Assembly: GCA_963755025.1 (NCBI GenBank)
Contig: CAVWIH010000034.1
Span: 1 to 64,000, forward strand
Source: an uncultured Actinomycetes bacterium
GTDB taxonomy: Bacteria; Actinomycetota; Thermoleophilia; UBA2241
Direction: 5' to 3'
Length of the DNA: 64,000 bases
Positions within the stretch are counted from its first letter, which is position 1. The number at the start of each line of letters is the position of its first letter. The notes under the pieces are model-generated. The model worked only from the letters and a program-made list of their open reading frames with translations. It was not told the origin of the DNA and did no database searches. Made by a program: the position numbers and the translations under genes. Below are positions 36,404 to 60,988 of this stretch, piece by piece.

Positions 36404-36908
36404 TCTTCGAGGGCACCGTGCACGCCTACGGACGCGACGTCGACACCGACGTCATCATCCCGGCGCGCTACCTGAACTCGAGCGACCCGGCCGAGCTGGG
36501 CGCGCACTGCATGGAAGACATCGACCGCGACTTCGTGGCCCGGGTGCGGCCCGGCGACATCATCGTCGCCGGCGAGAACTTCGGCTGCGGCAGCTCGCGC
36601 GAGCACGCCCCCGTCGCCATCCAGCGCGGCCGGCGTGTCGTGCGTCGTGGCGGCCTCGTTTGCCCGCATCTTCTACCGCAACGCCATCAACACCGGCCTG
36701 CCCATCGTCGATCTGCCCGGCCGCCGCGGCCGAGGCGCGCACCGGCGACAAGCTGCGCGTCGACGTCGTCGCCGGTGTGGTCGCCAACCTCACGCAGGGC
36801 ACGAGCCACCAGGCCGACGCCTTCCCCGAGTTCATGCAGGAGCTGATCGCCCAGGGCGGCCTGCTGCCTTACGTCAAGGCGCGCCTGGCCGCCGAGGGCA
36901 CGGCGTGA
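36400..36908 (+). CDS. leuD: 3-isopropylmalate dehydratase small subunit (frameshifts ~36625, ~36712)
   Basis: [41 protein letters not shown] and [14 protein letters not shown] fall in three successive frames. Confidence 0.9.
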
Positions 36909-37983: not shown

Positions 37984-38918
37984 ATGCCCATCCCCGAAGT
38001 CGACAAGATCTGGATGAACGGCGAGCTCGTGGACTGGCAGAACGCCCAGGTGCACGTGCTCACCCACGGCTTGCACTACGGCTCCGGGGTCTTCGAGGGC
38101 ATCCGCGCCTACAAGACCGACCGCGGCCCGGCCGTCTTTCGCCTGACCGCCCACCTCGCGCGCCTGCGGCGCTCCGCCAAGCTCTACTACATGGACGTGC
38201 CCTACACCGACGAGGCGCTCGCCCAGGCGACCAAGGAGCTCATCCACGCCAACGGCCTCGAGCACTGCTACATCAGGCCGATCGTCTACCGCGGCTACGG
38301 CGAGATGGGCCTGTTCCCGCTCGACGCCACGATCGACTGCTCGATCGCCGCGTGGGCCTGGGGCAGCTACCTGGGCGACGAGGGCATCAAGCACGGCGTG
38401 CGCGTGAAGGTCTCGTCGATCAAGAGCCTCGACAGCAACGCCATGACCCCGGCGGCCAAGAGCTGCGGCCAGTACCTGAACAGCCAGCTCGCCAAGATCG
38501 AGGTCGTCAAGGCCGGCTACGAAGAGGCCATCATGCTGAACAACGCCGGCTTCGTCACCCAGGGCACCGGCGAGAACATCTTCATGGTGCGCAACGATCG
38601 CATCTTCACGCCGCCGGTCTCCAGCGGGCTGCTCGAAGGCATCACGCGCGACACCGTCATAGCCATCGCGCCTCGCTCGGCTACCTGGTCGATAGAGCAC
38701 GACTTCACGCGCTCCGACATGGTCGTCGCCGACGAGGCCTTCTTCACCGGCACCGCCGCCGAGATCGTGCCCATCCGCGAGCTCGACGACCACCCGATCG
38801 GCGAGCCCGGCCCGCATCACCCGCGAGATGCAGCGCATCTTCCACGAGATCACCTCGGGCAAGCAGCACCGAGTTCGGCGACTACCTCGAGTACGTCGAC
38901 GAGGCCGTCACGGTCTGA
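37984..38918 (+). CDS. ilvE: Branched-chain amino acid aminotransferase (several frameshifts ~38670-38870)
   Basis: HVLTHGLHYGSGVFEGIRAY, LEGITRDTV and EAFFTGTAAEI; C-terminus EFGDYLEYVDEAVTV*; GAGGAGG RBS. Confidence 0.92.
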
Positions 38919-39033
38919 CGCCGGGCCGGGCCGGGGCTTCGCGCCCCGGCCCGCACCGACCGTCGCCTCGCCCCGGCCCGCAACCACCCGCCGCGCTGTG
39001 CGGTGGCCACGACGATCGAAAGGGACCCGCGCC

Positions 39034-40718
39034 ATGACCGCCGCCGGCGTCACGATCTACGACACCACCCTGCGCGACGGCATGCAGCAGGAGGGGCTGT
39101 CGGTCTCGGTCGACGAAAAGGTGCGCATAGCGCTCAAGCTCGACGAGCTCGGCGTGCACTTCATCGAGGGCGGGTTCCCGGCCTCCAACCCCAAAGAGAC
39201 GGCCTTCTTCGCCCGCATGGAGCGCGAGACGCTGCGCCACGCGGTGCTCGCCGCCTTCGGCATGACGCGCCGCAAGGGCGTGGCCGCCGCCGCCGACCCC
39301 AGCCTGCGCGTGCTGGCCGACGCCTCCACGCCGGTGGTCACCATCGTGGGCAAGACCTGGGGACTGCACCTGCGCGCCGTGCTGCACGTGAGCCCCGACG
39401 AGAACCTGCGCATGATCGCCGACTCGGTCGCCTTTCTCGTGGCCCAGGGCAAGCGCGTGCTCTACGACGCCGAGCACTTCTTCGACGCCTGGGCCGACGA
39501 CCCCGCACTACGCCCTGCAGACGCTGCGCGCGGCGCGCGAGCTCGGGCGCCGAGCTGCTCTGCCTGTGCGACACCAACGGCGCCACGCTGCCGCCCACCA
39601 TCGGGGCGCGTCGTCGCCGAGGTCGCGGCCGACGTGGGCGTGCCGCTCGGCGTGCACTGCCACAACGACGCCGACTGCGCCGTGGCCAACTCGCTCGTCG
39701 CGGTGAGCGCCGGCGCCGTGCAGGTGCAGGGCACCGTGAACGGCTACGGCGAGCGCTGCGGCAACGCCAACCTCACCTCGATCATCCCCGCGCTCAAGCT
39801 CAAGATGGGCCTGCCGGTGGTGACCGACGAGCAGCTCGAGCTCCTCGCCGAGACGGCCCACTTCGTGGCCGAGGTCGTCAACGTCACGCCCTGGGCCCAC
39901 CAGCCCTACGTGGGGCGCAGCGCCTTCACCCACAAGGGCGGGCTGCACGTGGCCGCGGTCGAGGCCGCGCCCGAGACCTTCGAGCACATCGACCCGGCGC
40001 TGGTCGGCAACGAGCAGCGCGTGCTCATCTCGGAGCTCTCGGGCAAGGGCGCCGTGCTGCGCAAGGCGCACGAGCTCGGCTTACGAGCTCGACGGCGACG
40101 ACGAGCGCGTGGGGCGCATTCTGCGGCGCCTCAAGCAAAAGGAGCACGAGGGCTTTCACTACGAGGCCGCCGACGCCTCGTTCGACCTCTTCCTGCACGA
40201 CCAGCTCGAGGGCCGTCAGCCGCTCTTTCGCCTCGAGAGCTTTCGCGTGATCGTCGAAAAGCGCGAGGACGGCCGCGTCGTCACCGAGGCCACGGTCAAG
40301 GTGCACGTGGGCGGCGAGCGCATCATCGCCACCGGCGAGGGCAACGGCCCGGTGAACGCCTTGGACACGGCGCTGCGCCAGGCGATCGTGCGCAAGTACC
40401 CGCACCTCGGCGACATCGACCTGGTGAACTACAAGGTCCGCATTCTCGACGAGAACAAGGGCACCGGCGCGGTCACGCGCGTCCTGCTCGACGCCAGCGA
40501 CGGCGCGCGGCACCTGGGGCGCCATCGGCGTCTCCGAGAACATCATCGAGGCGAGCTGGCAGGCGCTGGTCGACGCCATCGAGTACGGCATGCTGCGCGG
40601 CGGCGCGCCGGCGGCGGCCGGCGCAGATGCGCCGGGCGACGAGCCCGACGCCACGGCTGCGGGCGGCAAACCGGCGGGCCATACCGCGAGCGCCGCGCCG
40701 GCGGCCGACGAGGCGTGA
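39034..40718 (+). CDS. cimA: (R)-citramalate synthase (several frameshifts ~39505-40510)
   Basis: [60 protein letters not shown] and [12 protein letters not shown]. Confidence 0.9.
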
Positions 40719-41502
40719 GCGCCGCCGCCGCACGAACGGCTGCCGTCCGGCCGCGCGCTGGTCGACGGAGCGCCGCGCTTCTGCCTGCTCGACGGCGACA
40801 CGCTGCGCCTGCTCGACCGGCCCGCCTACGAGCCCGAGCGCCCGCGAGGTCGGCCGCGCCGCGGCTGCCGAGGCCCAGGTCCTGGCGCCGGTGCTGCCCA
40901 CGAAGATCGTGGCCGTCGGGCTCAACTACCGCGCCCACGCCGCCGAGCTCGCCATGGCGACCCACGCCGAGCCCATCCTCTTTCTCAAGCCGCCGAGCGC
41001 GCTCGTGGGCCCGCACGACGCCATCGAGCTGCCGGCGGCCTCAGCCCAGGTCGACTACGAGGCCGAGCTTGCGCTGGTGGTGGGGCGGCGCTGCCGGGCC
41101 GCAGGCCCGGCCGACGCCGCCTCCTTTGTGGCCGGCTACACCTGCGCCAACGACGTCACGGCGCGCGACCTGCAGAAGGTCGACGGCCAGTGGACGCGCG
41201 GCAAGAGCTTCGACACCTTCTGCCCCCTGGGTCCCTGGGTGGTGCGCGACGCGCCGCCGCCCGGCGCCGCCGTCACGGCGGCGCTCGACGGCGTGGTGGT
41301 GCAGCAGGGGAGGGTGGGCGACATGATCGTCTCGGCGCTCGACCTGCTCGTCTTCGTCTCGGCGATCATGACGCTCGAGCCCGGCGACATCATCCTTACC
41401 GGTACGCCGCCCGGCGTCGGGCCGCTCCGCGCCGGCCAGGTCGTGACCGTCGCAGTCGAGGGCGTGGGCAGGCTGTCGAACCCGGTGGTCGCCCCAGCCT
41501 GA
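40715..41502 (+). CDS. Fumarylacetoacetate hydrolase family protein (frameshifts in the 5' part)
   Basis: [42 protein letters not shown] and [10 protein letters not shown]. Confidence 0.88.
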
Positions 41503-42394: not shown

Positions 42395-42620
42395 TCCTCG
42401 TTCCCGGTCTGTCGGTGCGCATAACGTGACCCTTGCCGGACCGGAGGGTCGAGCGGTGGCCGCTTCCGCAAGTGCGCGACGCGGTTGGGTATGCGGCGAG
42501 AACAGCAGCGCGGACACGGTGATGATGGCCACCACCACCAAGCCTGATGCTCCGACGAGATCCGGCACCCGATCCGCCATAGACCCACGCCGTCACCGGC
42601 GGGTAGAATCAACGTCCCAG

Positions 42621-45600
42621 ATGGATTCAGGATTCGTCCACCTCCACGTTCACAGCGAGTACTCGCTCCTCGATGGCGCCTGCCGCCTGCGGCCGCTCGT
42701 CGAACGGGTGAAGGAGCTCGGCATGCCCGCGGTAGCGCTTACCGACCACGGGTCGCTGTCGGGCGCGGTGCAGTTCTACCGCGCCGCCAAAGAGGCGGGC
42801 GTCAAGCCCATCCTCGGCCTCGAGCTCTACGTGGTCTCCGACCGCCACGGCCGCGCTTCGGCCAAAGAGCGCTACTCCCACCTCACCATGCTGGCGCGCA
42901 CCAACCAGGGCTACGCCAACCTCATCAAGATCGGTACCGCCGCCTACCTCGAGGGCTACTACTACAAGCCGCGCGCCGACTGGGAGCTGCTCGAGCGCTA
43001 CAACGAGGGCCTGATCTGCCTGACCGGCTGCATGAGCGGGCGCGCCTCGATCATGCTGCGCGAGGGCAACGACGCCGCGGCGCTGGCCGAGCTCGAACGC
43101 CTGATCGGTCTCTTCGGCCGCGACAACGTCTACGTCGAACTGCAAGACGAGGGCATCGCCGAGCAGCGCGAGCTCGTCTCGAAGCTCGCCCTGCTGGCCC
43201 GCCAGGCCGGCTTAAAGACGGTGGCCACCAACGACGTGCACTACCTGCGCCACGAAGACGCCCGCGCCCAGGACGCCCTGGTCTGCATCCAGACGCAGTG
43301 CCAGTTAGACGAGCCCAAGGCCGCGCCGCGCATGAGCACCGAGGAGTTCTATCTCAAAGATGCCGACGAGATGCGCACGCTGTTCGCCGACTACCCCGAG
43401 GCCTGCGACACCACCCTCGAGATCGCCGAGCGCTGCAACGTCGAGCTCGAGTTCGGGCGCACCCTGCTGCCGCGCTACCCGGTGCCCGACGAGCGCAGCG
43501 AAGACGAGTACCTGCGCGACCTCTGCACCGAGGGCATCAGGCGCCGCTACGGCGCCGAGCCCCGCGCCGAGGTGCCCGAGCGCCTCGCCTTCGAGCTCGA
43601 CACCATCCGCGACATGGGTTTCAGCGCCTACTTTCTGATCGTCTGGGACTTCGTCAAGTTCGCCAAAGACTCGGGCATAGCGGTGGGGCCGGGGCGCGGC
43701 TCTGCGGCGGGCAGCATCGTGGCCTACTCGCTGGGCATCACCGACATCGACCCGCTCAAGTACGACCTGCTCTTCGAGCGCTTCCTCAACCCGGGCCGCA
43801 AGTCCATGCCCGACATCGACATGGACTTCTCGGTGGAGCGCCGCGACGAGGTCATCGAGTACGTCGCGCAAAAGTACGGGCGCGACCACGTCGCCCAGAT
43901 CATCACCTTCGGCACCATGGCGGCGCGCGCCGCCACGCGCGACGCCGCCCGCGTGCTGGGGCTGCCCTACGCGATCGGCGACCGCATCGCCAAGATGATC
44001 CCCGAGCAGGCGCCGCCGGCCACCTTCAAGCAGGCCATGGCCAACGGCAGCGAGCTCAAGGTCGCCTACGACAAAGACGAGCCCACCCGCCAGGTGGTCG
44101 ACCTCGCCATGGCGCTCGAGGGCCTCATCCGCAACGACTCCATCCACGCCGCCGGCGTCGTCATCTCCGACCTGCCGCTCACCGAGTACATCCCGCTGCA
44201 GCAAAAGGGCGAGGCCGAGGTGGTCACCCAGTTCGGCATGGACGACGTGGCGGCGCTCGGCCTGCTCAAGATGGACTTCCTGGGCCTGCGCAACCTCGAC
44301 ATCATCGAGGCCGCCCTCAAGCTGATCGAGAAGAGCCAGGGCGTCTGCGTCGACATGACGACCCTGCCGCTCGACGACGCCAAGACCTACGAGATGCTGG
44401 CCCGCGGCGACTCGACCGGCACGTTCCAGTTCGAGAGCAGCGGCATGAAAGAGGCCTTGCGCGAGATCGGTCCCACCGCGTTCGACGACCTCGTGGCCAT
44501 CGTCGCCCTCTACCGGCCGGGGCCCATGCAGTACATCTCGACCTACGCCCGCAACAAGAAGGACCCGGCCTCGGTGGTCTACGACCACGAGGCGCTGCGC
44601 CCCATCCTCGAGCCCACTCACGGGGTGACGATCTACCAGGAGCAGTACATGGCCATCGCCCGCCGGGTGGGCGGCTGCACGCCGGCCCAGGCCGACGACC
44701 TGCGCAAGGCCATCTCCAAGAAGAACAAGAAGCTCATGGCGAGCCTCAAAGACCCGCTCATGGAGGGCCTGCGCGCGAGCGGCCTGCCGCAGAACGTGTG
44801 CAACAAGCTGTGGAGCAACTTCGAGGCCACCGGCGACTACTCGTTCAACAAAAGCCACGCCGCCTGCTACGCGCTGATCAGCTACCGCACCGCGTTCCTC
44901 AAGGCCAACTACCCGGTCGAGTACATGGCGGCGGTCGTGTCGAGCGTCATGAACACCAAAGACAAGGTGCCCTTCTACGTGAACCAGTGTCACGAGATGG
45001 GCATCGACGTGCTGCCCCCCGACGTCAACGAGAGCGAAGTCGGCTTTACCGTGTCCGAGGGCAAGATCCGCTTCGGCCTGAACGCGGTCAAGGGCGTCGG
45101 GGTAGGCGCCATCGAGTCGATCGTCGCGGCGCGCGCCGACGGGCGCTTCAGCTCGATCTACGACTTCTGCGCGCGCGTCGACTCGTCGCTCGTCAACCGC
45201 CGCACGCTCGAGGCGCTCATCAAGAGCGGCGCCTTCGACTCGACCGGCGACACGCGCCGCGGCATGCTCGAAGCCCTGCCCGCCGCGTCGGCGTCGGGCG
45301 AGCGCCGGCGCCGCGACCGCGCCCAGGGCCAGGGTGGCCTGTTCGACGTGCTGGCCGCCGACACGAGCAACGAGATGGCCCACCACCCGGCGATCGGCGG
45401 CGAGGAGTTCGACTCCGACATCCTGCTGCGCTTCGAAAAAGAGGCGCTCGGCCTGTACCTGTCGTCGCACCCGCTCGAGGGCCTGCGCGCCCAGCTGCGC
45501 GACCAGATCGACGCCACCGTGAGCCAACTCGGCGACCTGCGCGACGGCCAGACCCTGTGGACCGGCGGTGTCATCTCGGGCCTCGCGCGCCGCCAGACGC

Positions 45601-46043
45601 GCAGCGGCTCGACCATGGCCGTCTTTCGCCTGGACGACGTCGACGGCGGCATCGAGGTGGTGGCCTTCGGCAGCATCTGCGAGCAGTTCCAGGACCTGCT
45701 CGTCGAAGACGCCATCGTGCTGGTGCGCGGCCGGCTCGACCGCAAAAGCGAAGACGACGTCAAACTGATCGCCCTCGAGCTGCGCCCCTTCGACGGCGTG
45801 AGCGCCAGCCGGCCCCTCACTCTCGTGCTGAACGCCGACCGCGTGCAGATGGACCTGCTCGACGAGCTCAAGTCGATCCTCGGCTCGTTCCCCGGCGAGG
45901 TGCCGGTCGTGCTGCAGCTCACCACGGCGCAGGGACGGCATCGCCTGAAGGTGGGCAACAAGTACCGGGTCGAACCGGTGAGCGGCCTCTACGCCGAGCT
46001 CAAGTGCCTGCTCGGCGAGAGCTGCGTGCGGGTCGGTCGCTAG
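42621..46043 (+). CDS. dnaE: DNA polymerase III alpha subunit
   Basis: FVHLHVHSEYSLLDG, GPGRGSAAGS, MPDIDMDF, FNKSHAACY and a C-terminal OB fold. TAGAAT precedes ATG 42621. Confidence 0.97.
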   Translation: MDSGFVHLHVHSEYSLLDGACRLRPLVERVKELGMPAVALTDHGSLSGAVQFYRAAKEAGVKPILGLELYVVSDRHGRASAKERYSHLTMLARTNQGYANLIKIGTAAYLEGYYYKPRADWELLERYNEGLICLTGCMSGRASIMLREGNDAAALAELERLIGLFGRDNVYVELQDEGIAEQRELVSKLALLARQAGLKTVATNDVHYLRHEDARAQDALVCIQTQCQLDEPKAAPRMSTEEFYLKDADEMRTLFADYPEACDTTLEIAERCNVELEFGRTLLPRYPVPDERSEDEYLRDLCTEGIRRRYGAEPRAEVPERLAFELDTIRDMGFSAYFLIVWDFVKFAKDSGIAVGPGRGSAAGSIVAYSLGITDIDPLKYDLLFERFLNPGRKSMPDIDMDFSVERRDEVIEYVAQKYGRDHVAQIITFGTMAARAATRDAARVLGLPYAIGDRIAKMIPEQAPPATFKQAMANGSELKVAYDKDEPTRQVVDLAMALEGLIRNDSIHAAGVVISDLPLTEYIPLQQKGEAEVVTQFGMDDVAALGLLKMDFLGLRNLDIIEAALKLIEKSQGVCVDMTTLPLDDAKTYEMLARGDSTGTFQFESSGMKEALREIGPTAFDDLVAIVALYRPGPMQYISTYARNKKDPASVVYDHEALRPILEPTHGVTIYQEQYMAIARRVGGCTPAQADDLRKAISKKNKKLMASLKDPLMEGLRASGLPQNVCNKLWSNFEATGDYSFNKSHAACYALISYRTAFLKANYPVEYMAAVVSSVMNTKDKVPFYVNQCHEMGIDVLPPDVNESEVGFTVSEGKIRFGLNAVKGVGVGAIESIVAARADGRFSSIYDFCARVDSSLVNRRTLEALIKSGAFDSTGDTRRGMLEALPAASASGERRRRDRAQGQGGLFDVLAADTSNEMAHHPAIGGEEFDSDILLRFEKEALGLYLSSHPLEGLRAQLRDQIDATVSQLGDLRDGQTLWTGGVISGLARRQTRSGSTMAVFRLDDVDGGIEVVAFGSICEQFQDLLVEDAIVLVRGRLDRKSEDDVKLIALELRPFDGVSASRPLTLVLNADRVQMDLLDELKSILGSFPGEVPVVLQLTTAQGRHRLKVGNKYRVEPVSGLYAELKCLLGESCVRVGR

Positions 46044-46231
46044 CCGGCTCGCGTGCGGCGCCGAGCGGCCCGGTGCCCCCGGCGCCGAGCGCCCCGGTGG
46101 CCCGGCGCCCGGCGCTCGTGGGCGGCGTAACGGCCGCGCCGCTGCACGGCCGGCCGGGTAGTAGCTAGACTGCTGTTCTTGAAGGGCGCCGCCTGGCGCG
46201 GCGCCGCGGTTTGATCGGAGGTCGGACTGCC

Positions 46232-47428
46232 GTGATTCCCGAAGGCATGCGCGACGTGCTGCCCGCCGAGGCGGCGGAGCTGCGCGCGATCGAGCAGATC
46301 GTGCTGGGCCGCTTCAACGCCTACGGCTACGGCGAGGTGCGCCCTCCGGCGCTCGAATACCCCGAGACCATGGAGCGCGCCGGCGTCGACCAGGCCTCGT
46401 CGGGCTTTCACCTCTACGACGAGCGCGGCCGCGCTCTCGTGCTGCGCACCGACCTGAGCACGGCCGTCGCCCGTCTGGCCGCCGACCGGCTGAGCGAGCG
46501 GCCGCTGCCCCTGCGCCTGGCCTACGAGGGGCCGGTCTACCGCACCGAGGCGACTCACAACCGCCGCGAGGGCGAGTTCTCGCAGCTCGGCGCCGAGCTG
46601 CTCGGCCTGGGCGCCGCGGCCGCCGACGCCGAGGTCGTCGTGCTGCTGTGCGACGCGCTCAGCGCGACCGGCCTGCGCGGTTTTCGCCTGGCGATCGGCA
46701 GCGTGGCGTTCCACCGCGAGCTGGTCGCCGCGCTGGGCCTGACGCCCGACGACAGCGACGACGTCTTCGACGCGCTGGCCGCCCGCGACTACGCCCTGCT
46801 CGAGACGATCGTCTCGCGGCGCGGCGTGAGCGACGAAGGCCGCAAGACCCTGCAGCGGGCGCTCGACCTGTCTCCGGGCAAAGGTGCGCTCACCGCGGCC
46901 CGCAAGCTGTCGAGCAGCGAGGGCATGGAAGACGTCGTCGACCGGCTCGTGCGGGTCCAGGAGCTGGCCGACGACGCCGGCTACGGCGACCTTGTCGGCT
47001 TCGACTTCGGCCTCATGCCCGAGCTCGGCTACTACACGGGCATCGTCTTCGAGGCCTGGGCTCCTGGCGTCGACTTTCCGGTCGCCATGGGCGGCCGCTA
47101 CGATCGCCTGCTGGCCGCTTTCGACTGGCCCATCCCGGCCGCCGGCTTCACGATCGACCTCGACCGGCTGCACCAGGCCCTGGTCGACGAGGGGGCCGGC
47201 GTGGCGCCGCTGTTCCCGCCGGCGCTGTCGTACGTGGGTGGGCTCGACGACCCCAAACGCGTCGACGACCTGCGCCGCCACGGCATCGCCGTCGCCGCCC
47301 TGCCCGGCGACGCCTCGGCGCGCATGCCGCGGCTGAGCGAGGAGCGCGGCGAGTTCGTCTTGGAGATGCCCGACGGTACCGCGCGAGGCTCGTGGCGCGA
47401 CGTGCTGCGCGCCCTCGGAGCCGGGTGA
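46232..47428 (+). CDS. hisZ: ATP phosphoribosyltransferase regulatory subunit
   Basis: PEGMRDVLP, EFSQLGAELLG, YYTGIVFE and GGRYDRL; HisRS-like without an anticodon domain; directly upstream of hisG. Confidence 0.88.
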   Translation: MIPEGMRDVLPAEAAELRAIEQIVLGRFNAYGYGEVRPPALEYPETMERAGVDQASSGFHLYDERGRALVLRTDLSTAVARLAADRLSERPLPLRLAYEGPVYRTEATHNRREGEFSQLGAELLGLGAAAADAEVVVLLCDALSATGLRGFRLAIGSVAFHRELVAALGLTPDDSDDVFDALAARDYALLETIVSRRGVSDEGRKTLQRALDLSPGKGALTAARKLSSSEGMEDVVDRLVRVQELADDAGYGDLVGFDFGLMPELGYYTGIVFEAWAPGVDFPVAMGGRYDRLLAAFDWPIPAAGFTIDLDRLHQALVDEGAGVAPLFPPALSYVGGLDDPKRVDDLRRHGIAVAALPGDASARMPRLSEERGEFVLEMPDGTARGSWRDVLRALGAG

Positions 47429-47444
47429 GCCGGTGAATCGGTGA
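47425..47444 (+). other. Two chained 3-codon ORFs bridging hisZ and hisG
   Basis: GTGA at 47425, 47433 and 47441 (8-nt period): GTG AGC CGG TGA / GTG AAT CGG TGA / GTG of hisG. Confidence 0.55.
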
Positions 47445-48163
47445 CCCTGCGCATCGTGGTTCCCGACGGCGCGCTGCGCGCGCCGTCGCTCGAGCTCTTC
47501 GCCGCCGCCGGCTTTGGCGGCGACGGCCGCGCGGCCCCAGACGGTCGCCCGGCCGAAGAGGGCGGTGCCCCGGCCGGCAAGGGACATCCGGCCGACGAGG
47601 GCCATCCGGCCGGCGAGGGCCGCCCGGCCAACGATCTCGACGTGCGCCTCGCGGTGGTGGCCGCCGCCGACGTGCCGGCCTACCTTTCGAGCGGCGCCGC
47701 CCACGCCGGGCTCGTCGCCAAAGACGCGCTGCTCGAGCGCGCCACCCGGCTCTGCGAGCTGCTCGACTTGCGCTTCGGCGCCGGGCAGCTCGTCTACGCC
47801 GTCGCGCCCGGCGCCGAGGTGCGCGCCGAGCGGCTCGGGCGCCTGCGCATCGCCACTCGCCACCCGGCCCTCACGCGCTCGTACTTTCGCGCGCGCGGCC
47901 TGCAGGTGAGCATCGTGCCGGTCGACGGCACGCTCGACCGGGCCGTCACCGACGGCCTCGCCGACGGCGTCGTGACGCTCGTCGAGACGACCCCGACGGG
48001 CAGCGCGCCGGCGGGCGTCGCGGGGCTCACTGTCGAGGGCGTCGTGGCCGAGACCAGCATCCGCCTGGTCGCCGGGCGCGGCGCCCGCGTGTTGCACGGC
48101 GCCGAGCTGGGGGTGGTTGTAGCGGGCCTGCGCGACCTGCTCGCCGGCAGGAGCGCGTCGTGA
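47441..48163 (+). CDS. hisG: Short-form ATP phosphoribosyltransferase homolog with degenerate active site
   Basis: Fold motifs are recognisable (DVPAYLSSGAAHAGLVAKDALLE, LDLRFG, RIATRHP, GLADG). PKGR is PDGA, GSVE is GTLD and DIVETGxTL is TLVETTPTG. Confidence 0.8.
   Translation: MTLRIVVPDGALRAPSLELFAAAGFGGDGRAAPDGRPAEEGGAPAGKGHPADEGHPAGEGRPANDLDVRLAVVAAADVPAYLSSGAAHAGLVAKDALLERATRLCELLDLRFGAGQLVYAVAPGAEVRAERLGRLRIATRHPALTRSYFRARGLQVSIVPVDGTLDRAVTDGLADGVVTLVETTPTGSAPAGVAGLTVEGVVAETSIRLVAGRGARVLHGAELGVVVAGLRDLLAGRSAS
47540..47632 (+). repeat. In-frame ~18-bp minisatellite inside hisG (5 degenerate units)
   Basis: gacggtcgcccggccgaa / gagggcggtgccccggccggc / aagggacatccggccgac / gagggccatccggccggc / gagggccgcccggccaac. 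Confidence 0.75.
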
Positions 48164-48274
48164 ACCGGTCGACCGTCGCCGGCAGGACGGCGTCGTGAGA
48201 CGGCCGGCGCCGGACGGTGGGGGAGAGGCATGAGGCGACAAAAGCTCGGCTACGAGGGAGAGCCATGAGACGGC
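48141..48274 (+). repeat. Degenerate 35-bp tandem repeat forming three chained 12-codon ORFs between hisG and hisD
   Basis: RTGA at 48160, 48195, 48230 and 48265. ORFs VNRSTVAGRTAS*, VRRPAPDGGGEA* and MRRQKLGYEGEP*. Confidence 0.8.
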
Positions 48275-49527
48275 TGACGCTGGGCGACGATCCGGCCGCC
48301 GTGGTGGCCGCGCTGCGCGACCCGCCGGCGGTCGAGCTCGCCGTCGAGCGCGTCGTGCGGGCGATCCTCGCCGACGTGGCGGCGCGCGGCGACGACGCCG
48401 TGCGCGACCAGGCGGCCCGCCTCGACCGGATCGAGCTGCCCGAGCGCTACGGCCTCGAGCCGGCCGTGCTGCGCGCCGCCCTCGCCGCCGCCGACCCCGA
48501 GCTGCGCGCCGCGCTCGAGCTGGCCGCCGCCAACATCCGCGCCTACCACACCCGCGAAAAGCCGGCGTCCTGGCGCGAGACCCTGGCCCAGGGCCAGGTC
48601 GTGGGCCAGGAGATCGTGCCGCTCGAGGTCGCCGGTCTCTACGTGCCCGGCGGCCTGGCCAACTACCCGTCGTCTGTGCTCATGACCGCCATCCCCGCGC
48701 AGGTCGCCGGCGTGCGGCGCGTCGTCGTGTGCTCGCCGCCGCGGCCCGGCGGCGGCGTCGCCGCGGGCGTGGCCGCCGCCTGCGAGCTGCTCGGCGTCAC
48801 CGATCTGTACCCCATCGGCGGCGCTCAGGCGGTCGCCGCCATGGCCTTCGGCACGGCTGTCGTGCCGCGCTGCGACGTCATCGTCGGGCCGGGGAACGCC
48901 TACGTCACCGAAGCCAAGCGCCAGGTCATGGGGCGGGTTCGCATCGACGGCCTGGCCGGACCGAGCGAGGTGCTGATCGTGGCCGACGCGGCCGGGCGGG
49001 TCGACTGGATCGCCGCCGACCTGCTCGCCCAGGCCGAGCACGGCGCGGGCGCCATGGCGGCGCTGCTCGACGTGGGCGGCGCGCTCGGCGACCGCGTCGC
49101 CGACGCGGTCGCGCGGCTTGCCGCCGACCTCGGCCTCTCCACCGAGCGCATCGCGCTCGTCGAGTGCCGCGACACGGCGGCGGCGGTCGGGCTGGTGAAC
49201 GCCTTTGCGCCCGAGCACCTCGAGCTCCACGTGGGCGACGCCGCGGCCCTCGTGCCCCAGGTGCGCAGCGCCGGGGCGATCTTCGTGGGCCCGCGCTCGG
49301 CGACCGCGTTCGGCGACTACGCGGCCGGCACCAACCACGTGCTGCCGACCGGCGGCTCCGCGCGTTTTGGCCAGGGCCTGTCGGTGAGCGACTTCGTCAA
49401 GCGCGTCGGGGTCGTCGAGCTCGACGCCGCCGCGGCCGCGGCGCTCGCCGCGCCGGTGGCGGCCATCGCCGGCGAAGAGGGCCTGCACGCCCACGCCCGC
49501 TCGGCCGTCCTGCGGGGAGCGCCGTGA
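48265..49527 (+). CDS. hisD: Histidinol dehydrogenase
   Basis: GLYVPGG, GGAQAVAA, GPGNAYV, AGPSE, AQAEH, APEHL, GDYAAGTNHVLPT and EGLHAH are all intact. Confidence 0.95.
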   Translation: MRRLTLGDDPAAVVAALRDPPAVELAVERVVRAILADVAARGDDAVRDQAARLDRIELPERYGLEPAVLRAALAAADPELRAALELAAANIRAYHTREKPASWRETLAQGQVVGQEIVPLEVAGLYVPGGLANYPSSVLMTAIPAQVAGVRRVVVCSPPRPGGGVAAGVAAACELLGVTDLYPIGGAQAVAAMAFGTAVVPRCDVIVGPGNAYVTEAKRQVMGRVRIDGLAGPSEVLIVADAAGRVDWIAADLLAQAEHGAGAMAALLDVGGALGDRVADAVARLAADLGLSTERIALVECRDTAAAVGLVNAFAPEHLELHVGDAAALVPQVRSAGAIFVGPRSATAFGDYAAGTNHVLPTGGSARFGQGLSVSDFVKRVGVVELDAAAAAALAAPVAAIAGEEGLHAHARSAVLRGAP

Positions 49528-50102
49528 GCGGCGCACGCGGGCGCCGGGCGGTCGCCGGCGACACGAGCTGCGGCGACCGCATAGCGGTCACCCTCGAGCT
49601 CGACGGCCATGGCCGCGCCGACGTGGCGACCGGCGACGAGTTCCTCGACCACCTGCTGCAGCTGGTCGCGCGGCACGCCCGCTTCGACCTGGCCATCGCC
49701 ATCGGCGACGCGCGCGAGGCCTGCGGCGACCGCGTCGTCGAGAGCATCGCGGGGGCGCTCGGCCGCGCCCTGCGCGACGCCCTGGGCGCCGAGCAGGGCA
49801 TCCGCCGCTCGGGCTCGGCGACCATGCCGGTCGACGAAGCGCTCGCCCTGGTCGCCCTCGATCTCTCCGGCCGGCCCTACCTGGCCTACGACATCGACCT
49901 GGCCGGCGTGCGCATCGAGGCCTTCGACGCCGACCTCGCCGGCCGGTTCCTGCGCGCCCTGGCCGATGCCGGCGGCATCACCCTGCACATCAGGCTGCTG
50001 TCGGGCAGCGATCCGCAGAACATCGTCGACGCCGTCTTCGAGGGCCTCGGCGAGGCCCTGCGCACGGCCTGCGAGTCGCTCGAGGTGAAGGCACAGCCGT
50101 GA
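49524..50102 (+). CDS. hisB: Imidazoleglycerol-phosphate dehydratase homolog lacking both HHxxE metal-binding motifs
   Basis: LELDGHG, TGDEFLDHLL, MPVDEAL, DLSGRPY and GITLHI are retained. DxHHxxED is CGDRVVES, NxHHxxE is DPQNIVD, and there is no C-terminal PSTKG. Confidence 0.82.
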   Translation: MSGARGRRAVAGDTSCGDRIAVTLELDGHGRADVATGDEFLDHLLQLVARHARFDLAIAIGDAREACGDRVVESIAGALGRALRDALGAEQGIRRSGSATMPVDEALALVALDLSGRPYLAYDIDLAGVRIEAFDADLAGRFLRALADAGGITLHIRLLSGSDPQNIVDAVFEGLGEALRTACESLEVKAQP

Positions 50103-50776
50103 GCCGCGCCGTCGACCTCGGCGACCTCGGCCCCGTCGCCGCCGCGAGGCTGGCCGACGACGTCGCCGCGGCCACCCTCATCTGCTTTCCGACCGACACC
50201 GTCTACGGCATCGGCGGCCTCGCCACGGTTGCGACGGCAGCCGCCATCGCCCACGTCAAGGGTCGCCCCCCCGACAAGCCGCTGCAGCTCGTCTACCCGA
50301 CGCTCGAGCTGCTGCTCGGCTCGATCCCGCTGGCGCCGGCCGTCGCGGCCGCCGCGCGCCGCCTTCTGCCGGGCCCGTTCACGCTGGTCGTGCCCTACCC
50401 CGAGGGCCTGCGGTTCCCGCCGCCGGGCGTGCTCGAAGCCCCCGGCGGCGAGCCCCTGAAGACGCTCGGCGTGCGCGTGCCCGACTGGCCGCTCGCCGCC
50501 CGGGCGCTGGCCGCCCTGCCGTTCCCGCTGCTGGCCTCGTCGGCCAACCTGAGCGGGGGCGACGACCCCGCCGAGCTCGCGGCCGTCGAGCCGGCCGTGC
50601 GCGCGGCGTGCGACCTTCTCCTCGACGCGGGACCGACCAGTGGCGTATCGTCAACAGTGCTCGATCTCAGCGGCCTGCCGGCCGGCCGGGGTTTTCGCGT
50701 GCTGCGGGCCGGCGTCGTCGGCGCCGCCGAGATCACCAGCATCCTCGCAAGCCACGAAGATCGGCTGCGCCACTAG
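50099..50776 (+). CDS. tsaC: L-threonylcarbamoyladenylate synthase (YrdC/Sua5 domain)
   Basis: FPTDTVYG, KGRPPDKPL, LPGPFTL, GVRVP, SSANLSG and SSTVLD. Confidence 0.9.
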   Translation: MSRAVDLGDLGPVAAARLADDVAAATLICFPTDTVYGIGGLATVATAAAIAHVKGRPPDKPLQLVYPTLELLLGSIPLAPAVAAAARRLLPGPFTLVVPYPEGLRFPPPGVLEAPGGEPLKTLGVRVPDWPLAARALAALPFPLLASSANLSGGDDPAELAAVEPAVRAACDLLLDAGPTSGVSSTVLDLSGLPAGRGFRVLRAGVVGAAEITSILASHEDRLRH

Positions 50777-54258: not shown

Positions 54259-54299
54259 AGGAGCAGTCACCTGACGATCGTCAGGTCATTCGAGTATGA
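54255..54299 (+). other. 14-codon bridging ORF (VKEQSPDDRQVIRV*) containing a perfect 18-bp palindrome
   Basis: GTGA overlap with the atpZ stop and ATGA overlap with the atpI start; acctgacgatcgtcaggt at 54269-54286. Confidence 0.5.
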
Positions 54300-54721
54300 A
54301 CACGAACCCGATCGCCCTACTGCGTCGTGAACCCGTCCCCGCCTTGCTGCTCGCGCTCTCCTTGGGCTGCGCCGGCGTGGCGGCCGCCGCGGGGCGCGAC
54401 GTCGTCACGGCGCTCATCGGGGCGCTGCTCGTGGTCGTCTACTGGGCGGTCGAGCGCCTTGCGGCGCGCATCGGCGCGCACGGCACTATCCAGCTGGCCA
54501 TGGTGATCGGCGTCGTCGGCATGGTCGTGCGCCTCACGATCGTCGTTGGCGGCCTCGTGATCATCGGCCTCGTCGATCGCCCGGGCTTCCTCGATGCCAT
54601 CGTGTCGTTCGTGGTCGTGTACACCGTCTACCTGGGTGTGCGCCTCTGGCGCTTCCCCGTCCCGCACGCCGACGCATCCGCCGGCCGATTGCTCACCCAT
54701 CGTCACAGGAGCGCCCGATGA
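54296..54721 (+). CDS. atpI: ATP synthase protein I-like membrane protein
   Basis: Four TM helices, located before atpB with an ATGA overlap. Confidence 0.7.
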   Translation: MNTNPIALLRREPVPALLLALSLGCAGVAAAAGRDVVTALIGALLVVVYWAVERLAARIGAHGTIQLAMVIGVVGMVVRLTIVVGGLVIIGLVDRPGFLDAIVSFVVVYTVYLGVRLWRFPVPHADASAGRLLTHRHRSAR

Positions 54722-55581
54722 AGTTCCTCAAGCGCATCCCCGCCTGGGCGTGGCTGGTCATCGGGCTGGCCGTGCTCGTCGGGCTGGCTCTGCTGCCGGG
54801 CAGCAAGAAGGCGACCTTCGACGTCTCGGGCGAGTTCCTGCTTCATCCGATCATCAGGCTCCCCAAGGTCGGACCGATCGACCTGTCGATCACCAAGCCG
54901 GTCATCTACTTGTGGCTCACGGTCGTCGTGGTCTGCATCTTCGCGGCGCTCATCAACCGCGGCCTCAAGACCAAGCCCGGGCGCTTTCAGGCGGCGATGG
55001 AAGGACTCTACGACCTCGCTCGCGACGGCATCTCGGGCGCGGTCATGAAGGGCAGCGGCGCCACCACGTGGTTCCCCTATATCGGCGGAGCGTTCTTCTT
55101 CATCCTGGTGTGCAACCTGATCGGCCTGATCCCGCTGCCTTTCGGCGTGGGCCACCAACTCGCCTTCTACGCCGCGACGGGCAACATCAACGTCACCATC
55201 ACGCTGGCCGTGTTCACGTTCGTCTTCACCCACTACGCGGGCATTCGCAAGAAGGGCCCGATCGGCTACGTCAAGGGCTGGGTCGTTCCCGCTCCGCCGG
55301 TTCTTAAGCAGTTCATCTTCGTGTCCGACGTCATCAGCGAGGTCTTCCGTCTGGTCTCGCTGTCGGTCCGACTTTTCGCCAACATGATCGCCGGTCACTT
55401 CATCCTGGCCGTGTTCTTTGCGATGGTGCTCGTGTTCCAGAGCTACCTGCTCGGCACCGTCCTGCAAGTCGGTTCAGTGGCGGTCTTCATGTTCGAGATC
55501 TTCGTAGCGGCCATCCAGGCGTTCATCTTCTCCATCCTTTCGGCCGTCTATATCGGCACGGCGCTCGAACAGGAACATTGA
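54718..55581 (+). CDS. atpB: ATP synthase F0 subunit a
   Basis: PGRFQAAME, NLIGLIP, SLSVRLFANMIAGH and IQAFIFSILSAVY. Confidence 0.96.
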   Translation: MKFLKRIPAWAWLVIGLAVLVGLALLPGSKKATFDVSGEFLLHPIIRLPKVGPIDLSITKPVIYLWLTVVVVCIFAALINRGLKTKPGRFQAAMEGLYDLARDGISGAVMKGSGATTWFPYIGGAFFFILVCNLIGLIPLPFGVGHQLAFYAATGNINVTITLAVFTFVFTHYAGIRKKGPIGYVKGWVVPAPPVLKQFIFVSDVISEVFRLVSLSVRLFANMIAGHFILAVFFAMVLVFQSYLLGTVLQVGSVAVFMFEIFVAAIQAFIFSILSAVYIGTALEQEH

Positions 55582-55636
55582 GGCAGATGGCCGTGTTCAG
55601 CTCGCTGTGGTCTGGTAGATATCAAGGAGGAGTCAC

Positions 55637-55906
55637 ATGGATGTAAGCGCCGCTACGGTCGCCGCTGCGGCGACGACCGAGACCGGTCTCAGGTTGCTCG
55701 GGGCGGGACTCGCCGCCGGGTTGGGAGTCGTGGGTCCGGGCGTCGGTATGGGTGTCCTGTTCGGCAGCGCCATTGAGAGCATCGCCCGCCAGCCGGAGCT
55801 CCGTGGCGAGATCCGCCTGAACATGTTCATCGGCATCGGCATCATCGAGGCGCTGGCTCTGTATGCCCTCGTCGTCGCCCTGATCCTTCTGTTCGTGGTC
55901 AAGTAA
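55637..55906 (+). CDS. atpE: ATP synthase F0 subunit c (H+-type signature)
   Basis: GxGxGxG, ARQPE loop, IIEALALY; AAGGAGG RBS. Confidence 0.96.
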   Translation: MDVSAATVAAAATTETGLRLLGAGLAAGLGVVGPGVGMGVLFGSAIESIARQPELRGEIRLNMFIGIGIIEALALYALVVALILLFVVK

Positions 55907-55942
55907 GTTGCACCATCCCCGCGAACGAGGAGTGAGCAAGTC

Positions 55943-56455
55943 ATGCTGCTGAGCATCAATCCGGGGCTGATGGTGTGGACGGCTATCACGTTCGGCATCT
56001 CGGTCTTCGTCTTGTGGCGGTTCGCGTTCGGCCCGCTGCAGAAGGTCATCGACGAGCGTCGTTCGAAGATCACCGAGAGCATCGATACGGCCGAAGAGAC
56101 GCGCGCCGAAGCCGCCCGTCTGCTCTCCGAGTATCGCGAGACGCTCGCTTCGGTACGCGCTGAGGCCGAAGAGATCCTCGAGCGTTCGCGCAAGGCCGGC
56201 GACACGACCAAAGCCGAGATCCTCGCCGAAGCGCGGCATCAGGCACAGCGCACGGTCGAGAAGGCCCAGGAGCAACTCGAGCGCGACGTCCGCGTGGCGC
56301 TGCAGCAACTCAAGGGCGAGATCGCCGGCCTCACGCTCATGGCCACCGAACAGGTCGTGGGCAGGTCACTCAACGACGCCGATCACCGACGCCTGATCGA
56401 CGAGGCGCTGCGCACCGCCAATCTCGACGATCTCGAACTCGGGAACGGCCGGTGA
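55943..56455 (+). CDS. atpF: ATP synthase F0 subunit b
   Basis: N-terminal TM, PLQKVIDERRSKI, coiled coil. Confidence 0.93.
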   Translation: MLLSINPGLMVWTAITFGISVFVLWRFAFGPLQKVIDERRSKITESIDTAEETRAEAARLLSEYRETLASVRAEAEEILERSRKAGDTTKAEILAEARHQAQRTVEKAQEQLERDVRVALQQLKGEIAGLTLMATEQVVGRSLNDADHRRLIDEALRTANLDDLELGNGR

Positions 56456-57005
56456 GCGACAGCGGAATCGCGCGAGTGTACGCGGTCGCGCTGTTCGAGG
56501 CGGCGACCGCGGCCGGCACCGTTGGGCCCACCGGCGGCGACCTACGCGAGTTTGTCGACGCGCTCGATGAGTCGCAGGCGCTGGCCAACGTGGTCTACAA
56601 CCCGCAGATCGAGCCCGAGGTCAAGCTGCGCGTGCTCGCTGGTCTCACGGGCGACGCGAACCGCCTCGCTGCAGGGTTGTTGAACGTAATGCTCGAAAAG
56701 GGCCGCTTCACGCTGGTCGGCAAGGTCGCCGACGAGTACGAGCGCTACGTCGCGCGGGCGGCCAGGGTGATCGAGGTCGAAGTCACTACGGCCGTCCCGG
56801 TCGCACCCGAGGTCGAGAGCCTCATCGTAGAACGGGTGCGGCGCACGACCGGCGGCGAACCAAGACTGACGAAACGGGTCGATCCAGGCATCCTGGGCGG
56901 GCTCGTGCTGCGCGTCGACGATCTGCTGGTCGACGGTAGCCTGCGCGCGCGCATCCAGCAGCTCGACGACCGATTGAGAACGGCAGACGTGAGAGGTGGC
57001 GACAA

Positions 57006-57009
<4 letters not shown>
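56452..57009 (+). CDS. atpH: ATP synthase F1 delta subunit
   Basis: ARVYAVALF and [22 protein letters not shown]. Confidence 0.93.
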
Positions 57010-58541
<1,532 letters not shown>

Positions 58542-58542
58542 C

Positions 58543-59420: not shown

Positions 59421-59421
<1 letters not shown>
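58543..59421 (+). CDS. atpG: ATP synthase F1 gamma subunit
   Basis: KITKAMELVSAAK, DRGLAGAFN and RARQASITQEILEV. Confidence 0.97.

Positions 59422-60988
<1,567 letters not shown>

Follow-up and report, generated by a model that had tools for sequence, protein, structure and literature searches.

The histidine locus and its relatives

The window analysed here, a 64-kb stretch of DNA from an uncultured soil actinobacterium, carries on its plus strand the gene order hisZ, hisG*, hisD, hisB* and tsaC, the asterisks marking two homologues that have lost catalytic motifs. The first gene, hisZ (46211..47428), encodes a HisRS-like regulatory subunit of 405 aa; the earlier note on this DNA had placed its start at 46232, which is the second possible start codon of the frame. 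After a gap of 12 nt comes hisG* (47441..48163), coding for a short-form ATP-PRT homologue of 240 aa, and then hisD (48265..49527), an apparently intact histidinol dehydrogenase gene encoding 420 aa from its ATG, with an upstream GTG at 48217 also open. The start codon of hisB* (49524..50102; 192 aa), a GTG, overlaps the hisD stop, and the hisB* stop overlaps the start of the tsaC/Sua5-family gene (50099..50776). The translational coupling suggested earlier is uneven: hisD/hisB* and hisB*/tsaC have these 4-nt overlaps, but hisG* and hisD lie 101 nt apart. As had been stated before, the window holds no hisC, hisH, hisA, hisF, hisI or hisE: none was found among its 27 further ORFs by Pfam scan, and HisH, HisA and HisF of a relative had no real match to the 64 kb by tblastn, a single hit at E=0.001 being rejected as antisense inside rpiB. 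Because the DNA is 75% G+C, stop-free frames say little here (on the antisense strand, too, an ORF of 733 aa covers 46040-48241), and the informative signs for hisG* and hisB* are the retained frame and end-to-end homology rather than the absence of stops.

The locus resembles the Firmicutes-type hisZGDBHAF operon, the full form of which is found in other Thermoleophilia (L004-L014) at the same place, between dnaE and tsaC-phzF-rpiB. The hisZ-hisG-hisD-hisB order is shared, but the window lacks hisH, hisA and hisF, and its hisB and hisG no longer encode the catalytic residues. Ruminococcus gnavus has a hisZGDB(FIE) operon according to an excerpt of PMC9413887. The order hisB-hisH-hisA-hisF-tsaC is seen in 11/11 related Thermoleophilia loci with canonical HisB, with hisH, hisA and hisF filling 2.3-2.5 kb between hisB and tsaC in full-operon relatives, whereas hisHAF is absent from the window and from 3/3 close relatives with a HisB* locus (L001, L002 and L003). 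This distribution shows an in-place deletion, with its junction in the window at 50099..50102 on the plus strand, and confirms the earlier description of the operon as truncated. In one relative, L007, hisZ-hisG is missing and hisDBHAF is kept, and in all 15 loci (covering the 64-kb window and stretches of 9-20 kb from the relatives) hisC, hisI, hisE and the phosphatase gene lie outside the locus.

The tsaC product scores 100.5 bits with PF01300 and 88.1 bits with TIGR00057, under the cut-off of 123.2. Its gene directly follows hisF in 11/11 canonical loci and stands beside hisB* because the deletion brought the two together; it is a neighbour by inherited synteny, outside his function, and the tie to t6A synthesis that had been entertained is thereby left unsupported. 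The 4-nt hisD/hisB* overlap is kept in 4/4 genomes, whereas the hisB*-tsaC spacing is -4 nt in the window and 120, 28 and 73 nt in L001, L002 and L003, respectively.

Folds and active sites of the encoded proteins

HisZ reaches 280.2 bits with TIGR00443 (cut-off 271.65), matches Pfam tRNA-synt_His over residues 12-320 and has as its best PDB match 3od1, a HisZ (182 bits). HisD looks intact from its sequence: it scores 436.7 bits with TIGR00069 against a cut-off of 243.8, aligns over its whole length with solved histidinol dehydrogenases (337.7 bits) and keeps the QAEH, PEH, GDY, NHVLPT and HAH stretches in place, as reported previously.

HisG* scores 88 bits with PF01634 and 95.4 bits with TIGR00070, above the cut-off of 75.75, and shares its domain and adjacent hisZ with the short-form HisGS and HisZ of Psychrobacter arcticus (PDB 5M8H, 7Z6R). 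Alignment to P. arcticus HisGS, with residue roles taken from an excerpt of PMC9734150, upholds the claim that catalytic motifs are lost. The KGR motif reads D-G-A (K to D, R32 to A), neither R56/K57 nor the Arg before DVP remains, and the PRPP loop, a hot spot for low-complexity inserts, has given way to variable ones; the loop pattern D-x-V-x-[TS]-G-x-T is in register, as aligned, in 0 of the clade rows P0121-P0183 and in 11/11 outgroup rows. The description of HisG* as full-length and stop-free holds for its intact frame, but has to be amended for an in-frame tandem repeat (47546..47634, plus strand; period 18 with 3.3 copies and period 36 with 2.4 copies by TRF), a low-complexity insert that occupies the position of the Arg56 loop and differs in length among the window, L001, L002 and L003 with the frame unbroken. 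HisG of the relatives that have hisBHAF is equally degenerate, having no KGR motif, R56/K57 or PRPP loop and scoring 57-69 bits, under the TIGR00070 cut-off. HisG therefore died before the hisHAF deletion and separately from it. The same excerpt reports that HisZ rescues P. arcticus HisGS carrying R32A or R56A as its only mutation (PMC9734150), so that the arginine losses alone leave residual chemistry possible. A predicted HisZ-HisG* complex has an ipSAE of 0.51 against 0.00 for the best control, a result graded by the tool as weak support; 116/157 solved complexes and 2/215 mismatched pairs reach the pass mark, values up to 0.60 comprising only 18 of the 157 solved complexes and both passing mismatches. 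The partners have a pLDDT of 76 or more, and at least 93% of contacts recur from run to run, although complexes of this kind have already been solved and the pass may reflect mere likeness.

HisB* is 39-41% identical to IGPD (A. thaliana IGPD2, PDB 4MU0; M. tuberculosis HisB), and its AF2 model (pLDDT 92.4) superposes on IGPD structures with TM 0.87 and rmsd 1.9 A. Against A. thaliana IGPD2, whose residue roles and eight Mn ligands are taken from an excerpt of PMC4509728 that includes its Table 2, the changes are E21 to G, H73 to D, H74 to R, H145 to R, H169 to Q, H170 to N, E173 to D and K177 to E, while H47, H55, E77, R99 and R121 are kept. Five of the eight Mn ligands are thus lost, to non-His residues of which two are Arg. 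These residues agree with the former proposal of a kept fold with lost catalytic motifs; the accompanying claim that HisB is full-length stands for the open frame only, as the C-terminal loop with PSTKG of canonical IGPDs is missing. The protein scores 135 bits with PF00475 but stays under the cut-offs of 13/13 NCBIfam IGPD models (best 151.6 vs 231), HisB* proteins reaching 152-164 bits as against 267-272 for HisB of relatives. Judged by these residues, HisB* looks dead as an IGPD.

The HisB* clade is monophyletic, arising on one branch (SH-aLRT 100) with a stem of 0.77 changes per site. HisB* of the window and HisB of L012 share 54.5% identity where the DnaE proteins are 80.1% identical, whereas canonical HisB pairs retain 73-74% identity at a DnaE identity of 70%. 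Of the 28 proteins in the clade, 0/28 retain His at 73 and 74, position 145 is Arg in 28/28, E173 has become Asp in 28/28, Lys persists at 177 in 3/28 and Glu at 21 in 5/28, position 181 is E in 96%, and the ligand region varies in length; in 91 canonical IGPDs, by contrast, both of these histidines are present in 91/91 and 90 have H, E or D at position 145. At a divergence of about 61% identity the clade has kept 48 core positions that are likewise conserved in canonical IGPD, while 25 have lost constraint, clustered on the active-site motifs, 10 are conserved but different and only 4 have gained constraint.

Selection on the four his genes

Over the four genomes, dN/dS (NG86) is 0.18-0.25 for hisB* (bootstrap limits 0.11-0.40), 0.37-0.44 for hisG* (0.27-0.63), 0.25-0.28 for hisZ and 0.19-0.21 for hisD, values that represent essentially one deep comparison at about 93% GC3 with gapped codons left out. 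The figure for hisD equals that in full-operon relatives (0.15-0.21), and the relics, at 0.2-0.4, have two to four times the ratio of canonical hisB (0.05-0.13); the neighbours rpiB, wecA and dcd are also somewhat relaxed in the HisB* clade. No stops or frameshifts were found in the four genes of the window and 3/3 relatives, at dS 0.3-0.6. On these ratios all four his genes are shown to be under purifying selection, and simple decay, the outcome by which the earlier note's reading was to be refuted, is ruled out. The same note's idea that the dead genes serve as coupling spacers does not suffice as the whole story, as the hisB*-tsaC spacing varies and amino-acid sequence, not an open frame alone, is selected.

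Possible salvage or relocation, and the fate of the relics

The reading that we tentatively prefer is that of an operon stump in which HisD still serves to turn histidinol into histidine, accompanied by three folded relics without catalytic activity. The stump is what is left of the hisZ-hisG-hisD-hisB-hisH-hisA-hisF operon of an uncultured Thermoleophilia lineage; HisG had lost its PRPP loop and leaving-group arginines earlier, in a wider clade. The in-place deletion removed hisH-hisA-hisF, and HisB, in the same lineage and once, passed through a burst of change that cost it Glu21, H73/H74, H145 (Arg in every clade member), Lys177 and the C-loop; H169 and H170 were lost later, on the window's own branch. 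HisD would still act on histidinol, either imported from neighbours or made through genes in other parts of the genome, and HisZ, HisG* and HisB* would be expressed as folded, non-catalytic proteins. HisZ and HisG* probably still form a complex. The Mn site of IGPD normally bridges subunits; HisB* probably forms an oligomer too, and to judge by its sequence Arg141 (At 145), paired with the retained Glu73 (At 77) and Asp169 (At 173), may replace that site. What keeps the relics may be a function other than catalysis, or the need for any translated member of the operon to fold without doing harm. If so, genome annotation would wrongly count dead HisG* and HisB* as working histidine steps.

Histidinol salvage is plausible, but would look the same here as relocation of the pathway to another site in the genome. 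Excerpts of a study of E. coli cross-feeding present histidinol as a metabolite that can pass between cells and sustain hisD+ histidine auxotrophs, a cell with only the last step living on the histidinol of others (bioRxiv 10.64898/2026.10.08.757639); these were laboratory deletion strains, whereas histidinol uptake and auxotrophy are putative in the window's lineage. Under relocation, which we consider doubtful, the organism would be a prototroph by virtue of a second hisB, hisH, hisA and hisF and a working ATP-PRT elsewhere, native or acquired, with hisHAF deleted as redundant, hisD left as the sole copy and HisB* and HisG* free to change. The unaltered constraint on hisD, the off-locus genes in all 15 loci and the degenerate or absent hisG of relatives, including L007, fit this account, as the first step must be encoded elsewhere in those relatives if they make histidine. 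In the window's genome a long-form hisG or a second hisB/hisHAF set may likewise lie beyond the 64 kb. It leaves selection on HisB* alongside the deletion unexplained, however, and among the best 120 IGPD and best 120 HisF relatives of thousands none lies on a contig with the length of any of the large ones that carry HisB* or HisG* (201825, 1095153, 1015495, 530569, 79162 and 78137 bp), which counts very weakly against it.

It is unlikely that the relics are functionless filler, translated since hisD and essential downstream genes (tsaC, rpiB and others) share the transcript, with selection acting solely against frameshifts, polarity and toxic misfolding. Consistent with such filler, between 45800 and 54000 no sigma-70-like promoter was found by a scan that covers types other than the actinobacterial ones, and the sole terminator-like site is within shuffle expectation; the hisD/hisB* overlap is conserved, HisB* has mainly lost active-site constraint and kept its core, and the HisG* loops grow by in-frame repeats. 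Yet hisB* lies downstream of hisD, so that hisD expression is independent of it, coupling to tsaC is not conserved, the clean loss of hisHAF shows that deletion of operon members is tolerated, and the ten newly clade-fixed positions, such as R145, D173 and E181, lie at or near the active site. That both proteins are still canonical enzymes with unusual active sites, the missing steps being encoded elsewhere, is very improbable: purifying selection, the TIGR00070 score of HisG* and the retained H47, E77, R99 and R121 would suit it, but catalytic Glu21 is Gly, and a plant E21Q mutant is reported as inactive in the excerpt of PMC4509728, besides which the ligands, C-loop and PRPP loop are altered as described above. 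We give least credence of all to ordinary pseudogenes decaying after a recent loss of the pathway. The lost catalytic residues and deleted hisHAF would be expected of them, the first two codon positions are enriched in G+C (0.78-0.83 and 0.49-0.57, respectively, vs 0.67 and 0.43 in dnaE), and frameshift-like stretches occur in 3 of about 63 HisG* and 2 of 29 HisB* database proteins, whether as sequencing errors or sporadic decay. Against this stand dN/dS far under 1 even at the upper bootstrap limits, frames intact in 4/4 genomes and the 48 core positions.

HisZ is a textbook pseudo-aminoacyl-tRNA synthetase turned regulatory subunit, which activates HisGS and passes on histidine inhibition. 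Like HisG* and HisB*, it is a catalytically dead paralogue selected for within the histidine pathway; unlike HisZ, with its demonstrated role, HisG* and HisB* are putative relics, and the partner of HisZ is here itself dead. It is possible that HisZ-HisG* serves as a histidine sensor and HisB* as a scaffold.

Truncation of the histidine operon

ORF and profile calls place dnaE (42426-46043), hisZ (46211-47428), hisG* (47441-48163), hisD (48265-49527), hisB* (49524-50102) and tsaC (50099-50776) in succession on the forward strand, HisG* and HisB* being homologues of ATP phosphoribosyltransferase (ATP-PRT) and imidazoleglycerol-phosphate dehydratase (IGPD) without the catalytic residues. Downstream of tsaC come phzF, rpiB, a dCMP deaminase gene and a wecA-like gene, in that order, then a candidate ATP synthase operon (ORFs at 54296-61425, assigned from position and size alone) and, beyond these ORFs, murA, all on the same strand. 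The gene order described in the earlier note is correct according to the ORF, Pfam, NCBIfam and tblastn results on the window. Pfam identifies ilv, leu and ser genes among 27 further window ORFs and no other his genes among them, and HisH, HisA and HisF of a relative, used as tblastn queries, have no credible match in the 64 kb. The G+C content of the window is approximately 70% and climbs to 75-77% across 46-50 kb.

A single scan of species-representative genomes, queried with the aligned sequences of the closest HisB* relatives, gave 80 loci. In three of these (L001-L003, from MAGs titled Thermoleophilia or Actinomycetes; HisB* 83-94% identical) the order dnaE-hisZ-hisG*-hisD-hisB*-tsaC-phzF is the same as in the window. 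Eleven Thermoleophilia-type loci (L004-L014), which encode a canonical HisB, have the same flanks with 2.3-2.5 kb separating hisB from tsaC, and this interval is occupied by hisH, hisA and hisF (Pfam; tblastn in 11 of 11 loci). Since tblastn finds these three genes missing from the window and from all three HisB* loci, the truncation of the operon is a derived, in-place deletion, and the position of tsaC beside hisB* is its remnant. A possible link to t6A synthesis had been suggested, and it is rejected because tsaC comes after hisF in all 11 full operons. The hisB*-tsaC junction itself varies: the two genes overlap by 4 nt in the window and are separated by 120 nt in L001, 28 nt in L002 and 73 nt in L003. 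Within the L001 spacer (6908-7029), about 40 nt are directly duplicated, the tsaC start region included.

Some of the full-operon relatives depart from the common layout. In L007 (8395-8722) dnaE lies directly before hisD and hisZ-hisG are absent, and in L013 (2928-3106) hisZ-hisG-hisB-hisHAF are present and hisD is absent at the locus. In L009 (10611-12388) hisH and hisF match piecemeal, the hisH match being shortened (61% identity) and that of hisF lacking residues 77-151, which reflects either MAG error or beginning decay. No part of the window matches an Rfam family at its gathering score, so that no RNA leader or T-box was found upstream of hisZ, and a promoter and terminator scan, little informative for an actinobacterium, gave no site within the his cluster. 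The dnaE-hisZ spacer contains a G+C-rich tandem repeat (46056-46115; 24-nt period, 2.3 copies, 90% matches). Two long antisense frames, one of 733 aa over hisZ-hisG (46040-48241, reverse strand) and one of 428 aa over hisD (48250-49536, reverse strand), are artefacts of the 75% G+C and not genes, as judged by G+C per codon position.

HisB*: active site, fold and origin

HisB* covers the full Pfam IGPD profile (PF00475, positions 1-144; 135.3 bits) and aligns readily with plant IGPD2 (136 bits). It is under the cut-off in all 13 NCBIfam IGPD models (best 151.6 bits vs 231), and the canonical HisB proteins of L004 and L012 pass the NCBIfam IGPD model at 267-272 bits. Residues are given here in the numbering of Arabidopsis thaliana IGPD2, which is that of the window HisB* plus 4. 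In the plant enzyme, Mn1 is bound by H47, H74, H169 and E173 and Mn2 by H73, E77, H145 and H170 (Table 2 of Bisson et al., 2015; PMC4509728), and the same paper describes Q51, H55, K177 and R99 as phosphate contacts and E21 and E173 as putative catalytic residues, with E21Q inactive. Of the eight Mn ligands the window HisB* retains H47 and E77; E173 is replaced by Asp, and the other five positions are D73, R74, R145, Q169 and N170. Position 21 is Gly and position 177 is Glu, while H55, R99 and R121 are retained. The PSTKG C-terminal loop present in canonical proteins is missing, as the window HisB* and its clade stop short of it.

An AF2 model built on a 101-row alignment has a pLDDT of 92.4 and superposes on IGPD structures with a TM-score of 0.87 and an rmsd of 1.9 Å. 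The 28 clade sequences alone gave a poor model (pLDDT 58.1), which reflects alignment depth and not disorder, given the result with 101 rows. The lost residues and C-terminal loop, the scores beneath cut-off and the modelled fold together indicate that HisB* is an IGPD-fold protein that is most unlikely to act as an IGPD, and to judge from the sequences the HisB* and HisG* steps are very probably not catalysed. Because the IGPD active site lies between subunits, with metal ligands contributed by two chains (Bisson et al., 2015; PMC4509728), we infer that the invariant Arg at position 145 may, with the retained E77 and D173, replace the metal bridge.

A protein search recovered 29 HisB*-type clusters (90% identity), 62-92% identical to the window HisB*, beyond which come canonical IGPDs at no more than 61% identity. 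Residue counts were taken over 28 HisB* sequences (the window and 27 others, clusters P0006 and P0010 being dropped for frameshift-like stretches) and 91 canonical ones. His is found at positions 73 and 74 in none of the HisB* clade, compared with all 91 canonical proteins at each; position 145 is Arg in 28 of 28 and H, E or D in 90 of 91; and position 173 is Asp throughout the clade (28/28) and Glu throughout the canonical set (91/91). Lys177 persists in 3/28, His169 in 24/28 and His170 in 17/28, each being universal among canonical proteins (91/91), and position 21 is Glu in only five of the 28 and Gly in 20, against Glu in 87/91.

In a tree of 65 rows (P0001, P0002, P0006 and P0010 left out, canonical rows thinned), the HisB* clade is set apart by a single branch with SH-aLRT 100, and its stem is 0.77 changes per site long. 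The window HisB* is 54.5% identical to HisB of L012 where DnaE of the same pair is 80.1% identical, whereas canonical HisB pairs are 73-74% identical at a DnaE identity of 70%; these figures record the same burst of change as the stem. When the clade is compared per position with its canonical sister group, 48 conserved positions are common to both, and 25 have lost constraint in HisB*, clustering on the N-terminal R-x-T-x-E-T and the first D-x-H-H-x-x-E-D and including R121. Ten positions are conserved in both groups but differ (among them H145R, E173D and R181E), and four have gained constraint. The core has thus been kept and the active site freed, with a few former active-site positions fixed in new states, a pattern consistent either with a role outside catalysis or with an operon member that has to be translated and is selected to fold harmlessly. 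HisB* offers a single-origin, dated switch from an enzyme to a conserved non-enzyme, exactly at the deletion of its pathway neighbours.

HisG*, HisZ and HisD

HisG* scores 88.2 bits against PF01634 and 95.4 against TIGR00070 (cut-off 75.75). As it passes this NCBI hisG cut-off, an annotation pipeline would name it a working hisG, and the JGI name for HisB* relatives is "imidazoleglycerol-phosphate dehydratase"; the consequence is that pathway-completeness estimates for these soil Thermoleophilia MAGs would count two steps that very probably do not take place. HisG* was aligned to solved short-form enzymes in the numbering of the Psychrobacter arcticus enzyme, HisGS, fixed via PDB 7Z6R, which is the R56A variant. 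The KGR motif has become D-G-A, with R32 replaced by Ala; L003 has Ala-Ala in place of R56 and K57, which in the window give way to a tandem-repeat insert (47546-47634, forward strand, 18-nt period); the Arg ahead of DVP is Ala; and the PRPP loop is gone. In HisGS, according to Fisher et al. (2022; PMC9734150), the role of Arg56 and Arg32 is to stabilise the pyrophosphate as it leaves. The losses are common to about 63 clusters (alignment rows P0121-P0183), 46-97% identical to the HisG* of L001 used as the query. The D-x-V-x-[TS]-G-x-T loop is in register, as aligned, in none of these rows and in 11 of 11 outgroup rows; the loop region of the clade holds low-complexity inserts of variable length, and other stretches are strongly conserved.

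The HisG proteins of the L004-L014 relatives that have hisBHAF (e.g., L006, 8101-8721) are at least as degenerate, being without KGR and the PRPP loop, and score 57-69 bits with TIGR00070, under the cut-off, compared with 95-102 bits in the window clade. The loss of HisG chemistry is therefore older than, and independent of, the truncation of the operon, and these relatives, if they make histidine, must encode the first step elsewhere or by another kind of ATP-PRT. A HisG* profile run against 1.84 billion representatives matched 3641 proteins at E ≤ 0.001, 21 of them at E ≤ 1e-30. Among 60 short proteins aligned from these matches, about nine 50%-identity representatives are without both motifs, the others being canonical, from which the degenerate group appears small, with no link to another function seen. 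Many of the representatives (P0214, P0229, P0238, P0245 and others) are proteins of about 510-620 aa with the HisG domain at about 300-590 (mostly about 340-550), and these may be HisZ-HisG fusions.

HisZ is a classic pseudoenzyme and the regulatory partner of HisG. The window protein passes the hisZ model (TIGR00443, 280.2 vs 271.65) and fails the hisS model (TIGR00442, 160.6 vs 286.75), its Pfam match is confined to residues 12-320, a HisRS-like core without the anticodon-binding domain, its gene adjoins hisG*, and its closest solved structure is a HisZ. A predicted HisZ-HisG* pair gave a median ipSAE of 0.51 over three runs, graded by the tool as weak support, and the highest of three controls reached 0.00; partner pLDDT is at least 76 and contacts agree to at least 93% between runs. 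In the benchmark, 116 of 157 solved complexes and two of 215 mismatched pairs pass; only 18 of those complexes, and both of the mismatched pairs that pass, do so at 0.60 or under. As the fold was made from self-made alignments, these benchmark counts apply roughly, and the score may show only the likeness of the pair to already solved HisZ-HisG complexes. The locus sets a newly non-enzymatic HisB* beside an older dead enzyme, HisG*, whose regulatory partner is itself a pseudoenzyme. Within open-access full text, nothing pairs "pseudoenzyme" with IGPD or ATP phosphoribosyltransferase.

HisD scores 436.7 bits with TIGR00069 (cut-off 243.8) and 337.7 bits against solved HisD structures in the PDB, and conserves the QAEH, PEH, GDY, NHVLPT and HAH stretches, which we take to be its Zn ligands and catalytic residues.

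Selection and readings of the locus

Pairwise Nei-Gojobori dN/dS was computed on codon alignments (gapped codons excluded, 200 bootstraps) for the window, L001 and L002, each against L003 (dS 0.3-0.6), and for six pairs of full-operon relatives at similar dS. The window-clade values, which from four genomes amount to essentially one deep comparison by a method biased at 93% GC3, are 0.25-0.28 for hisZ (0.12-0.24 in full-operon relatives), 0.37-0.44 for hisG (bootstrap 0.27-0.63; relatives 0.20-0.31), 0.19-0.21 for hisD (relatives 0.15-0.21) and 0.18-0.25 for hisB (bootstrap 0.11-0.40; relatives 0.05-0.13), with 0.31-0.39 for tsaC and 0.11-0.14 for dnaE. Measured against the full-operon relatives, hisB* is thus relaxed by about two- to four-fold yet far from neutral, and the constraint on hisD is unchanged; rpiB, wecA and dcd of the window clade are also somewhat relaxed. 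Simple decay, which the earlier note had named as the refuting outcome and which would bring dN/dS near 1 and stops in relatives, was checked for and is absent. Ordinary pseudogenes are rejected on the same grounds, as all four genomes have intact reading frames and dN/dS for the relics is 0.18-0.44 with upper limits of no more than 0.63.

The reading that best combines these results, which we hold tentatively and at somewhat short of even confidence, is that this lineage truncated its histidine operon and retained the enzyme of the final step, the relics HisZ, HisG* and HisB* being selected as proteins. Such a lineage either imports histidinol or histidine, or has the missing steps moved elsewhere in the genome. 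For the second course, the degenerate HisG of prototroph-looking relatives implies, if these make histidine, that members of the group carry further his genes away from this locus; the 120 IGPD and 120 HisF matches listed include no additional hisB or hisF sharing a contig with hisB* or hisG*, a result too weak to argue either way. As to import, histidinol is reported in a 2026 preprint (bioRxiv 10.64898/2026.10.08.757639) to be the metabolite whose exchange sustains histidine auxotrophs, hisD mutants excepted, and exchange of histidinol, not of histidine alone, among microbes is in keeping with an intact hisD on a truncated pathway. In open-access full text, Thermoleophilia, histidine and auxotrophy come together in a single paper, on HisN phosphatases.

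A more elaborate and rather unlikely proposal is that the locus is a small salvage-and-sensing module and not debris. HisB* would then be the founder of a new, metal-independent IGPD-fold family that arose once at the pathway cut, with the invariant Arg occupying its former Mn site, and the trio of H47, H169 and D173 might, in most members, hold one ion or ligand. The much older pseudo-HisG and HisZ would form a histidine-binding complex working with HisB*, and the two together would have a regulatory or scaffolding role in the histidine or histidinol economy, for example by acting on HisD.

An error-ridden assembly is rejected as the source of the his features, because these recur in three independent MAGs and dozens of metagenomic proteins. 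Elsewhere in the window some genes are broken. serA (within 31500-33106) is split over two frames according to Pfam matches in extra frames, ORF 30646-33495 sharing its frame with the catalytic and NAD domains and ORF 32486-33106 containing ACT together with what is left of the intervening domain, and leuB (36635-37829) has profile positions 2-48 in one frame and 58-303 in another; both splits reflect either indels introduced in assembly or the decay of pathways for other amino acids. A single frame of 1172 aa (37984-41502, forward strand) contains Pfam aminotransferase class IV, HMGL-like/HCS_D2 and fumarylacetoacetate hydrolase domains, the second of which is isopropylmalate or citramalate synthase-like, and it is explained either by fusion of three genes or by the loss of stop codons. 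The ORF at 12662-13141 (forward strand) matches only the final third of a beta-eliminating lyase profile (188-286 of 288) and is a truncated or frameshifted gene.
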